Virus record (IMG/VR): IMGVR_UViG_2695420821_000006
DNA length: 7,082 nucleotides
Strand: one strand, 5' to 3'
Origin: a virus
Lineage: Duplodnaviria; Heunggongvirae; Uroviricota; Caudoviricetes
Position numbers and translations under genes: made by a program. The notes under the pieces are model-generated. The model did not search any database. It saw only the letters and a program-made list of their open reading frames with translations, and was not told the origin of the DNA. Shown one piece after another: positions 38-6,090 of the stretch (positions are counted from its first letter, which is position 1; the number at the start of each line of letters is the position of its first letter).

Positions 38-1576
38 TTATTCAGTCGGCAGTGCTACGCGCCAGGGGAGCAGTTCGCCGACCCGGTTTATCGGCCAGTC
101 GGCTATGACGTCAAGGACATAGCGGAGGTAGCTTTCTGGCTCCACTCCGTTCAGTTTGCACGTCCCGATCAGGCTGTACAGCAGCGCTCCCCGCTCTCCT
201 CCATGATCCGAACCGAAGAACAGGTAGTTTTTGCGGCCCAGACTGACCATCCGCAACGCATTTTCAGCGATGTTATTGTCCGCCTCAGCCCAGCCATCAT
301 CTGCATAGTACGTCAGCGCCGGCCACTGGTTCAGGGCGTATGCGAACGCTTTCGCCAGTTCTGAGTGTCGCGACAGGGTTTTCATCTTTTCACGCAGCCA
401 GCTTTCCAGGGATTTCAGCAGCGGTTTCGTTTTCAACTGACGTTCGGCAAGGCGCTGCTCCGCCGTCATTCCCCTTATCTCTGCCTCGATGGCGTACAGT
501 TCGCCGATCCGTTTCAGCGCTTCCTCCGTCAGGGCTGACGGGGTGCGAACGTGCACATCGTGGATTTTACGGCGGGCGTGAGCCCAACAGGCGGCTTCCG
601 TTATCCGGCCATCCCGGTACAGCTCGTTGAACCCGGCGTATGCATCCGCCTGCAGTACACCACTGAACCCCGCAAGATGGGTCTGCGGATGGATGCCTTT
701 TCTGTCCGGGCTGTAAGCGAACCACACCGCCGGCGCCAGCGTTGACCCGGCGTTACGGTCGTCACGAACGTAGGTCCATAACCGCCCGGTCTTCGTTTTC
801 TTATTGCCTGGCAACAGCACCGGGACAGGCGTGTCATCAGCATGGAGCTTACCGTCAGTCAGCACATAGTCCTGAAGCGCTTCTTCCAGCGGTGACAGTA
901 GCCGGCAGCATGCATCCACCCAGCCCGACAGCAGTGAACGACTCAGCTCCACGCCCTGGCGGCCGTACATTTCAGACTGGCGGTACAGCGGGGTGTGCTC
1001 TGCATACTTTGAGATCAGCACGCGGGCCAGCAGCCCCGGTCCTGCGATACCCCGCTCGATGGGCCGTGAAGGCGCGGGGGCCTGCACGATGGCATCGCAC
1101 TGAGTACAGGCATGCTTTTCACGTACAGTCCGGATAACCCGGAAGGCGCTGCGCATCAGCTCCAGCTGTTCGGCGGCATCCTCACCCAGATAGCTCAGCG
1201 AGCCTCCACATTCCGGGCAGCATGACGCTGCCGGCAGCAGCCGTTTTTCATCGCGGGGGAGTGATTCGGGGAACGGTTTGCGGGTGCGGGTTTGACGCAG
1301 CGGGCGCTGCACGGCCGGGTCGTCAACCCGACCGGTAAGGGTATCACTTTCTTTCTGAAGTGCCTTCAGGTCAGCTTCCATCTGTGCGATACGACGGGAG
1401 ACTTTTTCCGAGCGGCTGCCGAAGTTCATCCGGCGCAGCTTATCCAGCTGTGCCTGCAGATGGTCTATTTCGCGTTCACGCTCGTTCAGCTTTTCCTGCA
1501 GGGCACGGTTCAGCGCCTCCTGTTCGGCAAGGAGACGTTTCAGTGCATTGATATCGTCAGGAAGTGAGCTGCTCAT
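38..1576 (-). CDS. tnpC: IS66-family transposase (TnpC / Orf3), 512 aa
   Basis: 512-aa ORF with an N-terminal coiled-coil-like region ([19 protein letters not shown]...), a CxxC...CxxC zinc-finger-like pair (CCPECGG...CTQCD) and a long catalytic core; matches my recollection of IS66 TnpC architecture. It is the last of three co-oriented IS ORFs. Confidence 0.88.
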
Positions 1577-1624: not shown

Positions 1625-1972
1625 TTACAACATAGTCAGGGACGTAAGCAGTCTTTTAGGCTGCCGCCAGTCGATACCTTCCAGCAGCATCGCCAGCTGT
1701 GCCGGTGTGAGGAACACTTTGCCATCCCGGGCTGACGGCCAGGCGAAGCGGCCGCGCTCCAGCCGTTTGGTCAGCAGACACAGTCCATCGCCGGTAGACC
1801 AGAGGAGCTTTACCTGACTGCCATTACGCCCACGGAAGATAAAAACGTGACCTGACATCGGATCGTCTTTCAGCGTCGTCTGCACCTTTGCCGCCAGGCC
1901 GTTGAAGCCGTTTCTCATATCGGTGATGCCAGCGACCAGCCAGATCTTTGTCCCTGATGGTAATGGGATCAA
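1625..1972 (-). CDS. tnpB: IS66 Orf2 (TnpB-type accessory protein), 115 aa
   Basis: Translation MIPLPSGTKIWLVAGITDMRNGFNGLAAKVQ... has the characteristic IS66 Orf2 N-terminus; its start overlaps the tnpA stop by 4 bp. Confidence 0.85.
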   Translation of the reverse strand: MIPLPSGTKIWLVAGITDMRNGFNGLAAKVQTTLKDDPMSGHVFIFRGRNGSQVKLLWSTGDGLCLLTKRLERGRFAWPSARDGKVFLTPAQLAMLLEGIDWRQPKRLLTSLTML

Positions 1973-2373
1973 CGTTTGAGCTCCCGTATCAGCAGGTTCA
2001 GGATATTTTCGCTGATGGCACCATTCAGACGGAGTGATCCGTGCCGGAACGTCACTTCACAGCTGATATTGAGTGATTCAGGTGTCGCAGCAGCTACAGG
2101 TTGTGACCGGGGGGAGGTTGTAGGGACAACATCTTCGGCATCAAGTGTTATCGGGAGCAGCTCAGGCACGTTGTTTTCTGTTGTTGAAGGAGGACGTAGT
2201 TTTCCTTCGCGCCAGTACTGGCGCCACTTGAACAGCAAATTATCGTTGATCCCATGCTCACGAGCGAGTTGCGCTACGGAGATCTCTGGTCGATGCGAGA
2301 GTTCAACCATTTTGATTTTGAACTCAACGGGATAATTAGGGCTTTTTTTACGCACTGCGGTTAATGATTTCAT
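1969..2373 (-). CDS. tnpA: IS66 Orf1 (TnpA, helix-turn-helix transposase accessory protein), 134 aa
   Basis: N-terminal HTH-like region (EFKIKMVELSHRPEISVAQLAREHGINDNLLFKWRQ) typical of IS3/IS66 orfA proteins; first ORF inside the tnpA-proximal IR. Confidence 0.82.
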   Translation of the reverse strand: MKSLTAVRKKSPNYPVEFKIKMVELSHRPEISVAQLAREHGINDNLLFKWRQYWREGKLRPPSTTENNVPELLPITLDAEDVVPTTSPRSQPVAAATPESLNISCEVTFRHGSLRLNGAISENILNLLIRELKR

Positions 2374-4376: not shown

Positions 4377-4475
4377 ATGTCGGATGATATTTCACTGGCA
4401 ATGGAAGGCGCGCTGGCCGTTATTTCTGTTGTGGGCGTTTACTGCCTGGTTGTGTTTTTGATGGATCGGATGTGA
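4377..4475 (+). CDS. Putative small hydrophobic peptide (32 aa)
   Basis: MSDDISLAMEGALAVISVVGVYCLVVFLMDRM; preceded by a strong RBS AAGGAGGG (4366-4373) 4 nt before the ATG. One predicted transmembrane helix. Confidence 0.45.
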   Translation: MSDDISLAMEGALAVISVVGVYCLVVFLMDRM

Positions 4476-4522
4476 AACTGAATTCATTGCGATATGGGCA
4501 TTCCCATATCGGGTAAAACGGT

Positions 4523-4550
4523 TTGCGGTAAAGCGAGAGTTAAGTAGAAT
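4523..4550 (+). promoter_or_regulatory. Putative sigma70 promoter of the hok/mok mRNA
   Basis: TTGCGG (4523-4528), 16-nt spacer, TAGAAT (4545-4550); predicted start near 4557-4560, where the sequence (GGGTGCTTGAGGCTGTCTGCCTC...) resembles the 5' end of plasmid R1 hok mRNA as I recall it. Confidence 0.45.
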
Positions 4551-4556
4551 TGCTGC

Positions 4557-4568
4557 GGGTGCTTGAGG
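4557..4568 (+). promoter_or_regulatory. hok mRNA 5' element (tac-like) complementary to the 3' fbi-like element
   Basis: GGGTGCTTGAGG is complementary, with one bulge, to CCTCAACGCACCC at 4931-4943. It is followed by a 9-bp stem CTGTCTGCC / GGCAGACAG (4570-4578 with 4596-4604). Confidence 0.45.
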
Positions 4569-4609
4569 CTGTCTGCCTCGGGCATGCCGACGTAAGGCAG
4601 ACAGAGAAA

Positions 4610-4676
4610 AGCCCCAGTTAACATTATGCGTCTTGCAGGACGCTTAACATTAATCTGAGGCCATATCTATGACTTG
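4610..4676 (-). ncRNA. sok: Predicted Sok-like antisense RNA (approximate boundaries)
   Basis: A minus-strand promoter (features 4684-4712) would start transcription near 4676, giving an antisense RNA across the mok SD and start codon as in hok/sok systems. The 3' end is not defined; only a weak hairpin (GCGTC…GACGC) and a short T-run are visible. Confidence 0.4.
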
Positions 4677-4881
4677 CACACTTAGATTAGCCTCTTACGC
4701 GCCGAAAGGCAAGGAGCAGCAGGCTATGAAGCAGCAAAAGGCGATGCTAATCGCCCTGATCGTCATCTGTATTACCGTCGTTGTAACGGTACTGGTAACG
4801 AGGAAAGACCTCTGCGAGGTACGAATCCGAACCGGCCAGACGGAGGTCGCTGTCTTCACAGCTTACGAATCTGAGAAGTAA
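4669..4881 (+). CDS. mok: mok-type reading frame (70 codons) that includes the hok frame and shares its stop
   Basis: ATG at 4669 with SD GAGG (4657-4660); in frame with hok. The arrangement is as I recall for chromosomal mokC/hokC. This is the target region for the antisense RNA. Confidence 0.5.
   Translation: MTCTLRLASYAPKGKEQQAMKQQKAMLIALIVICITVVVTVLVTRKDLCEVRIRTGQTEVAVFTAYESEK
4684..4712 (-). promoter_or_regulatory. Putative sok promoter
   Basis: On the minus strand: TTGCCT (complement of 4707-4712), 17-nt spacer, TAATCT (complement of 4684-4689); it lies inside the start of the mok frame, as expected for sok. Confidence 0.4.
4726..4881 (+). CDS. hok: Hok/Gef-family type I toxin (small membrane killer protein), 51 aa
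   Basis: MKQQKAMLIALIVICITVVVTVLVTRKDLCEVRIRTGQTEVAVFTAYESEK aligns by eye with Hok (…[27 protein letters not shown]): one transmembrane helix followed by the conserved TRK-LCE-R…EVA-F-AYES-K tail. RBS AAGGAG at 4711-4716. Confidence 0.88.
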   Translation: MKQQKAMLIALIVICITVVVTVLVTRKDLCEVRIRTGQTEVAVFTAYESEK

Positions 4882-4930
4882 GAGACCCGGCGAGGGAGAA
4901 ATCCCTCGCCACCTCTGATGTGTCAGGCAT

Positions 4931-4943
4931 CCTCAACGCACCC
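4931..4943 (+). promoter_or_regulatory. fbi-like 3' element of hok mRNA
   Basis: CCTCAACGCACCC is complementary to the mRNA 5' end (4557-4568). It lies between a perfect 9-bp hairpin (GGCGAGGGA-GAAA-TCCCTCGCC, 4889-4910) and the terminator. Confidence 0.45.
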
Positions 4944-4951
4944 GCACTTAA

Positions 4952-4976
4952 CCCGCTTCTGCGGGTTTTGTTTTTT
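4952..4976 (+). terminator. Rho-independent terminator of the hok mRNA
   Basis: CCCGC-TTCT-GCGGG stem-loop (4952-4965) followed by TTTTGTTTTTT (4966-4976). Confidence 0.7.
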
Positions 4977-4997
4977 CTTGACATTCTGGTTTACAAT
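4968..4997 (+). promoter_or_regulatory. Possible weak promoter for the downstream ORF
   Basis: TTGTTT (4968-4973), 18-nt spacer, TACAAT (4992-4997). A perfect TTGACA at 4978-4983 is too close to that -10 element to be its -35. Speculative. Confidence 0.25.
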
Positions 4998-5047
4998 TCG
5001 CACGCCAGCCTGAACAACTGGCACCTGCTGTGTCACCGGAGAACCCG

Positions 5048-5239
5048 ATGGCGCAACGTATAAAATCCCACAATTCTGAAGCCGTCCCGGCCATTAAGCG
5101 GGGGCGGCATTCGCACGTATTTAAAACCGACTGGTACCAGCATCCCCCATGCACTGAAGAACAGGCCGAATGGCTGATTCAGTGTTACCGCAGGCGCGGA
5201 TATTGGTGTGTCACGTTAACCGGAAAAAGGAAAGTTTGA
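5048..5239 (+). CDS. Hypothetical 63-aa ORF, possibly the 5' part of a frameshifted gene continuing into the TerB-like frame
   Basis: ATG at 5048 with RBS GGAGA (5038-5042); the ORF track starts it at an upstream GTG (5030). It ends at TGA 5237-5239, directly after an A5 run (5224-5228) where a +1 shift would enter the TerB-like frame. Confidence 0.3.
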   Translation: MAQRIKSHNSEAVPAIKRGRHSHVFKTDWYQHPPCTEEQAEWLIQCYRRRGYWCVTLTGKRKV

Positions 5240-5776: not shown

Positions 5777-6090
5777 TTTTTTTGTTTGCTGTTTATTAAA
5801 AACACTTCTGCATGGTGAATCCCCCTGTGCGGTGGGGCAATCAGCAAGAAGGAATATGGGGTAATCGCGGATTCAGGTGCTGATACTGAATTCACCGGGA
5901 GGCACCCGGCACCATGCTTTGCCACAAAAGTGTTATTTCTGTTTTTCTCAAACTATCATCGTTATCCCTTTATTTTCGGCTGCGCATGGCGCGGCCTTTT
6001 TTTTACGACCAGCCACTGGCAGATGGTCATCCTGTGATTTGATTCCGCTTCCGGCTTTTTAACTCTGTTCCTCTACACGGGAGAAATTCG

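Follow-up and report, generated by a model that had tools for sequence, protein, structure and literature searches.

In this work, we have combined sequence comparison, profile searches and RNA folding to analyse a 7,082-nt stretch of viral DNA (Caudoviricetes, IMG/VR record IMGVR_UViG_2695420821_000006; the whole stretch is called the window below). Our results show that positions 4523–4972 of the window hold a complete hok/mok/sok type I toxin–antitoxin locus, and we conclude with high confidence that this is an intact module of the prophage hokD/hokW clade, most likely operating according to the plasmid R1 paradigm. The elements, their homology and their predicted RNA conformations were obtained in this analysis. 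A sequence-only reading of the same DNA had described a complete, apparently intact locus of a known system. All the elements that it listed are present, at the positions it gave or a few bases off them, and no stop codon, frameshift or insertion sequence (IS) lies within the locus. Of the extent that it proposed, 4523–4980, the start stands and the end does not, since the transcript stops near 4972. The system is indeed already known, and includes an experimentally studied near-relative: the locus matches the families RF01794 and HOK_GEF, and shares 87–99.8% nucleotide identity with annotated hokD-type loci and with hokW-sokW.

Two profiles identify the locus. The leader matches the Rfam family RF01794 at 4557–4731 on the plus strand with 114.8 bits (E = 2.4e-26, model positions 1–157 of 157), a score that lies far above chance expectation and above the gathering score of 59 bits, and Hok matches the Pfam family PF01848 (HOK_GEF) with 82.4 bits (E = 1.6e-23, profile positions 1–42 of 42, cut-off 22 bits). 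RF01794 is named "sok", and its plus-strand match could be taken for a strand conflict; this was ruled out by a control run on sokC and sokB of Escherichia coli K-12, where the model matches the hokC/hokB strand, opposite the annotated sokC and sokB. The model is written in the hok sense orientation, and its match therefore validates the hok leader and locates sok only indirectly. A minus-strand match to the same model (4485–4615, 20.6 bits) was dismissed as noise. The two coding frames are the following, with the Shine-Dalgarno sequence abbreviated as SD:

4669–4881, plus strand: mok, 70 aa, stop codon at 4879–4881, SD GAGG at 4657–4660, 8 nt upstream; in frame with hok, which it contains
4726–4881, plus strand: hok, 51 aa, MKQQKAMLIALIVICITVVVTVLVTRKDLCEVRIRTGQTEVAVFTAYESEK; SD AAGGAG at 4710–4715

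Both the mok frame with its own SD and the 51-aa toxin had thus been correctly recognised. The in-frame layout is the same as that of the annotated K-12 mokC/hokC; in five relatives (L010, L020, L022, L029 and L049) mok is shifted out of frame by an additional base ahead of the hok SD, as occurs in hokB. Compared with the known Hok proteins in a six-sequence alignment, the toxin is 90% identical to HokD and to HokW, 86% to HokC, 43% to R1 Hok and 39% to HokB, and it retains all 12 invariant columns. It is identical to the UC4224 protein WP_000813246.1, annotated Hok/Gef, in agreement with an intact gene. Membership in the prophage hokD/hokW clade is based on an alignment of 28 loci, on the protein identities and on the prophage context seen in L001, L002, L004 and L009: the Sok/leader hairpin of the window locus is extended by 16–18 nt, its tac reads GGGUGCUUGAGG, its toxin, at 90%, exceeds the ~85% identity to HokD asked of the clade, and the locus lies in a lambdoid prophage.

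The transcript of hok and the RNA elements that would control it are laid out as follows:

4523–4550, plus strand: hok promoter, −35 box TTGCGG (4523–4528), 16-nt spacer, −10 box TAGAAT (4545–4550), read from the sequence
4557–4972, plus strand: full-length hok mRNA, ~416 nt, with the 5΄ end taken from the start of the Rfam model and the 3΄ end in the T run past the terminator
4557–4568, plus strand: tac, GGGUGCUUGAGG, predicted to pair with fbi in the full-length RNA, with ucb (4609–4615) in the open form and with 4575–4585 in the nascent RNA
4609–4615, plus strand: ucb (anti-Shine-Dalgarno box), AAGCCCC, predicted to pair with the mok SD in the closed form or with tac in the open form
4690–4694, plus strand: dcb box, GCCUC, predicted to pair with the mok SD; it lies within the sok promoter region
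4931–4943, plus strand: fbi, CCUCAACGCACCC, complementary to tac with a single bulged C at 4937
4950–4975, plus strand: intrinsic terminator of the hok mRNA, stem-loop 4950–4967 with the 7-bp stem AACCCGC/GCGGGUU and the loop UUCU, followed by UUUGUUUUUU; found by a terminator scan and also in the RNA fold

The promoter of the earlier description is present, and its hexamers and spacing are the same as in the hokW locus of prophage Sp5 (L008), whose mRNA has been detected by northern blot (PMC8621323); the RF01794 match begins 7 nt past its −10 box. The intrinsic terminator was likewise found, with its T run. The complementarity between 4557–4568 and 4931–4943 also proved real: in the minimum free energy (MFE) structure of the 416-nt RNA these two segments pair, around the bulge at 4937, with pair probabilities of 0.97–1.0, and in the same RNA ucb (4611–4613) pairs with the mok SD (4659–4661) with probabilities of 0.98–0.99. 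The predicted state of the full-length RNA is therefore a tac/fbi closure with sequestration of the mok ribosome-binding site, as in the tac/fbi arrangement of R1. Imposing the open fold on the full-length RNA by constrained folding costs 10.6 kcal/mol; in an RNA shortened by 42–57 nt at its 3΄ end, the open fold with tac/ucb alone lies 1.9–2.4 kcal/mol above the MFE, or 2.8–5.5 kcal/mol when pairing of the SD (4657–4661) with dcb (4690–4694) is also enforced. The MFE structure of the leader alone is the open consensus structure of RF01794, including the tac/ucb stem, and in the first 44 nt of the nascent RNA tac folds into a local hairpin. Thus, the closed, the nascent metastable and the open states of the R1 model were each recovered in silico, the open state after trimming by constrained folding.

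The pairing of tac with fbi is conserved across relatives. Scanning a single genome of each species yielded 79 loci, in Escherichia, Shigella, Kluyvera, Pseudocitrobacter, Pantoea and Photorhabdus, among others. In about 60 of the 79, the leader pairs through its first 12–13 nt with a segment located 45–57 nt past the hok stop codon. Changes on one side are compensated on the other (GGGUGC with GCACCC and GGGCGC with GCGCCC; GAGG with CCUC and GAGA with UCUC), the varying pairs being U-A or C-G at position 4 and G-C or A-U at position 12, and in the R1 class both sides are shorter by one base, a compensating indel. A covariation count over 18 distinct sequences gave 99.1% paired for the six outer tac/fbi pairs, versus at most 59% with the partner slid; the fbi segments of the relatives were picked by best duplex, a selection that favours pairing. 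One pair covaries (UA 11, CG 4, UG 2), with a score attained by 7 of 500 shuffles. The formal count is modest, with only one variable outer pair, and the compensating indel and the inner-helix changes, which cannot be placed in one register, are stronger evidence than this outer-helix count.

We propose that the locus works as described for plasmid R1 hok/sok (summarised in PMC9841398); transcription, processing, the action of Sok and toxicity are here inferred from the relatives. A weak constitutive promoter would drive hok, giving a stable ~416-nt mRNA whose 5΄ end would be kept in a local hairpin during transcription. Once the RNA is full-length, tac would pair with the 3΄ fbi and the upstream box GCCCC (4611–4615) would lock the mok ribosome-binding site, and the hok mRNA would therefore be neither translated nor bound by Sok. 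Slow 3΄ exonucleolytic trimming would then take off fbi and the terminator, tac would capture the upstream box, and the mok ribosome-binding site would move into a hairpin with the downstream box, so that Mok could be translated and Hok alongside it by coupling. An unstable Sok of ~73 nt, made from the opposite strand inside mok, would pair with the mok initiation region and block translation through degradation of the duplex by RNase III. If synthesis of Sok stops, Hok would be made, would enter the inner membrane and would kill or lyse the cell.

The antisense side of the locus can be read on the minus strand:

4684–4712, minus strand: sok promoter, −35 box TTGCCT (4712–4707), 17-nt spacer, −10 box TAATCT (4689–4684), read from the sequence
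4605–4677, minus strand: predicted Sok RNA, ~73 nt, with a 5΄ single-stranded tail (4677 to ~4663) and a hairpin (4662–4611) followed by UUUUCU; the ends are inferred
4627–4644: clade-specific insertion of 16–18 nt, with GCGUCUUGCAGGACGC within it, which lengthens the Sok hairpin at its tip, together with the corresponding hairpin of the hok leader

At the sequence level, the convergent antisense promoter proposed inside mok was thus found (4712–4684); it is a homologue of the promoters of sokW and sokC and aligns with the −10 box TAACCT of sokW. When that box was replaced by site-directed mutagenesis with primers YO-421 and YO-422, protection against HokW was lost (PMC8621323). The 5΄ end of Sok, 7 nt past the −10 box, was set by analogy with the annotated sokC, which begins 9 nt inside mokC. 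The predicted RNA folds with −28.4 kcal/mol (z = −4.84), a value equalled by 0 of 200 shuffles. The length of ~65 nt expected by the sequence-only reading fits R1 and hokC; we predict ~73 nt instead, because this clade carries the 16–18 nt hairpin insertion, which is extra relative to the Rfam consensus and is present in all prophage hokD/hokW-type loci and in neither hokC-type loci nor R1. The complementarity reported for sokW is 71 nt (PMC8621323).

How strongly each part of the locus is constrained can be judged by comparing 16 distinct prophage-type loci in pairs; the mean numbers of differences per site are the following:

fbi: 0.03
Sok hairpin: 0.06
tac: 0.08
hok coding sequence: 0.08
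loop of the 5΄ hairpin (4582–4594): 0.37
Sok 5΄ tail and mok start (4662–4683): 0.40

The low divergence of the functional parts, 0.03–0.08 against ~0.4 in the unconstrained parts, suggests that purifying selection is still acting in the clade. This bears on the possibility, which we consider unlikely, that the locus is intact in sequence and a functionally silent relic of a decaying prophage, giving no toxic level of Hok, no stabilisation and no effect on phages. The prophage is degraded, with an ISEc22-like element at 1–2455 and a loss of ~2.9 kb at about 5202–5231; the chromosomal hok loci that have been tested gave no post-segregational killing (bioRxiv 10.1101/2025.08.07.668861); and hok loci of K-12 are often kept in inactivated form, hokD without a leader and hokC abutting IS186. 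In the window, however, no inactivating lesion is visible, and the regulatory elements are all kept, as are the residues invariant in the six Hok proteins. Moreover, the 90%-identical HokW and HokD are toxic, the latter together with 42 of 45 tested homologues (bioRxiv 10.1101/2025.08.07.668861).

Some of our own results weigh against an intact module working as in R1. When folded without constraint, the 3΄-trimmed RNA has as its MFE structure either a local 5΄ hairpin or another pairing, and not the published open fold, so the refolding after 3΄ trimming is no more than plausible. A generic promoter scan called neither promoter, the hok promoter matching the consensus at 8 of 12 positions and the sok promoter at 3 of 6 in the −10 box; we do not count this against them because they are weak by design and were placed by homology to tested relatives. 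The prophage looks defective, and a role linked to its induction may for this reason have lapsed. Finally, Hok as encoded in the genome has Cys30 and lacks a second cysteine, with Tyr at position 47, so that its activity may depend on editing, a point that could also be taken in favour of a silent relic. The motif concerned is:

4864–4867, plus strand: UACG editing motif, the Tyr47 codon UAC (4864–4866) followed by G, read from the sequence

UACG is the context of A-to-I editing by TadA, and both the motif and its conservation in Hok proteins have been described (bioRxiv 10.1101/2025.08.07.668861). Editing of hok mRNA recodes Tyr to Cys, and full toxicity depends on the disulfide of the resulting Cys pair (Bar-Yaacov 2017 and Didi 2025, cited in the same preprint). 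By analogy, full toxicity of the window Hok probably also requires editing of Tyr47 to Cys, which would be the partner of Cys30. No stable tRNA-like local hairpin was predicted around the motif, which is a further point on the unfavourable side. This editing layer is a known feature of the system that was absent from the sequence-only reading. A second UACG is found in hok at 4819–4822 (plus strand), across Val32 and Arg33, where editing would be synonymous.

The stretch 4662–4683 stands out as a hypervariable island within prophage hok loci that are otherwise 90–95% identical (L002 and L008–L029). Among 5,426 genomes, 129 have the window-type Sok tail at 90–98% identity, and most of these belong to Shiga-toxin strains. 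One could imagine that these 22 nt, comprising the 5΄ recognition tail of Sok and the first mok codons, form an antisense "specificity cassette" under diversifying selection, of which the window carries a minority specificity type, and, if so, the several hok/sok copies of an E. coli genome (median 2, up to 10) would be unable to protect against one another. We regard this idea as rather doubtful. The variability is equally compatible with a simple lack of constraint, because a cis-antisense pair remains complementary under any mutation.

The closest experimentally studied relative is hokW-sokW of the Stx2 prophage Sp5 in E. coli O157:H7 Sakai, whose toxin is 90% and whose transcript is 87.5% identical to those of the window. 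The two loci share the hexamers and spacing of the hok promoter, tac, fbi, the 16–18 nt hairpin insertion, the sok −35 box, a mok frame in phase with hok and residence in a prophage. They differ at many positions in the Sok 5΄ tail and mok start (4662–4683), in the sok −10 box (TAACCT in hokW-sokW, TAATCT in the window) and in the C-terminal region of Hok (FVDYESEK in HokW, FTAYESEK in the window); furthermore, hokW (phage VT2-Sakai/Sp5, 2500–2960) diverges right after fbi, lacks the terminator hairpin of the window and is located near one end of Sp5, whereas the window-type locus is located in the nin-like region. HokW is toxic and is counteracted by sokW, and northern blots have revealed the two RNAs (Takada et al. 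2021, PMC8621323). On prophage induction sokW vanishes, and hokW-sokW accelerates growth arrest and doubles the release of Sp5 after mitomycin C, thus helping its own prophage to lyse the cell (PMC8621323).

What could be the role of the window locus? Stabilisation of the surrounding element or exclusion of phages, as suggested by the sequence-only reading, would be conjectural. Retention of the prophage remnant, help in lysis on induction, phage exclusion and no role at all are the candidates. A tentative possibility is that the locus is functional and directed at phages, and not an addiction module: loss of Sok on SOS or prophage induction would lead to early permeabilisation by Hok, lysis and phage release, or the locus would act by abortive infection. 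The behaviour of hokW-sokW speaks for such a role, as do the position of the locus in the early-right (nin-like) region of lambdoid and Stx prophages, the roughly 4-fold enrichment of hok genes in prophages reported in the literature and the 42% decrease in the plating efficiency of T4 reported for R1 hok/sok on a high-copy plasmid. However, the prophage of the window lacks Q at its usual place and carries an IS, which makes productive induction doubtful within the window; hokW is located elsewhere in Sp5; and, according to the preprint, hok shows no enrichment in the vicinity of defence systems (bioRxiv 10.1101/2025.08.07.668861). In any case, a phage-directed role concerns the biological role and not the mechanism, and is compatible with an intact module working as in R1.

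Loci of this kind are common. Out of 5,426 complete E. coli genomes, 3,818 contain the 521-nt region at a coverage of at least 80%, the carriers having a median of two copies each, and the homologous copies are annotated "Hok/Gef family protein" or "hokD". The nearest copy, in UC4224, has 3 differences in 521 nt (at 4514, 4698 and 4981) and lies in a Stx2a prophage, between the replication genes and Q; its transcript is 99.8% identical to that of the window, compared with 93.8% for a hokD-type locus. The copies annotated hokD are ~94% identical and occupy the same place in lambdoid prophages; hokD-annotated loci such as that of DETEC-S792 are 93.8–94.7% identical to the window across the whole locus. 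Three further systems can be compared with the window. The K-12 hokD (relF), in the Qin cryptic prophage, has a 90%-identical toxin and likewise stands beside the DUF551 and DUF968 genes of lambdoid prophages, but it is truncated, with relBE directly upstream and without promoter, tac, leader, mok or sok, all of which the window copy has. The hokC/mokC/sokC locus (gef) of the E. coli chromosome is similar in its toxin (86%), its in-frame mok, its Sok starting 9 nt inside mok and its leader, which reaches 118.3 bits in Rfam against 114.8 for the window; it differs in being a core-chromosome locus and not a prophage one, with the K-12 copy abutting IS186, and, since it lacks the 16–18 nt insertion, in its shorter Sok (annotated sokC 59 nt, against ~73 nt predicted in the window). 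Plasmid R1 hok/sok (parB) has the same tac/fbi, ucb and dcb, the coupling to mok, the sok promoter inside mok and the terminator after fbi; its toxin is 43% and its transcript ~49% identical, its tac is GGCGC where the window has GGGUGC, with compensation in fbi, and it is plasmid-borne and mediates post-segregational killing.

The value of these results is mainly in annotation: the decayed lambdoid prophage of the window harbours an intact and probably live toxin–antitoxin module, whose antisense RNA and mok are unannotated. In public records of near-identical loci the Hok coding sequence alone is annotated, and mok, sok and the RNA elements are omitted. The window locus also shows the form of K-12 hokD before relBE displaced its control region. 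In practical terms, a hok/sok-type locus can impede deletion or curing of the region in which it lies, and can add to membrane damage under SOS stress or blocked transcription.

The surrounding element is a damaged lambdoid prophage. Within it, the hok locus occupies the early-right (nin-like) region, which in lambdoid and Stx prophages has the replication genes on one side and Q on the other. The ISEc22-like element is of the IS66 family, is 99.8–99.9% identical to other E. coli copies and encodes three genes:

38–1576, minus strand: tnpC
1625–1972, minus strand: tnpB
1969–2373, minus strand: tnpA

It abuts the DUF7167 gene (2372–2653), and MLI108K2 has the same IS ~230 bp further along the same region. 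The ~2.9 kb missing at the breakpoint (~5202–5231), by comparison with two related prophages (L001 and L004), include DUF968, rusA, the antiterminator Q and three tRNA genes. A GIY-YIG-like gene downstream of hok (279 nt) is cut short there, leaving an open reading frame (ORF) at 5030–5239, and past the breakpoint the sequence resumes in a TerB-family pseudogene region.

Other RNA families and small elements were also noticed in the window. The hok 3΄ untranslated region (4890–4971, plus strand), with a hairpin at 4889–4910, fbi and the terminator, has a sub-threshold match to isrK (RF01394; 29.3 bits against a cut-off of 50, E = 0.0023), which we rejected; a literature check did not connect IsrK, an Hfq-binding small RNA, with hok and gave another origin for it, and the match is probably a generic hairpin-plus-terminator resemblance. 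Upstream, a 32-aa hydrophobic ORF (MSDDISLAMEGALAVISVVGVYCLVVFLMDRM; 4377–4475, plus strand) with a good SD ends ~50 nt before the hok promoter. It has no Pfam match and may encode a small membrane protein in its own right; three other prophages have an annotated "hypothetical protein" at this position. Between this ORF and the hok promoter there is a near-perfect palindrome, GATATGGGCATTCCCATATC (4491–4510), which could be a terminator-like or operator-like element. On the other side, downstream of the TerB-like fragment and in the part that related prophages have after Q, a full-length match to the STnc100 small RNA family (RF02076) is found at 5781–5953 on the plus strand, with 100.8 bits against a gathering score of 47.

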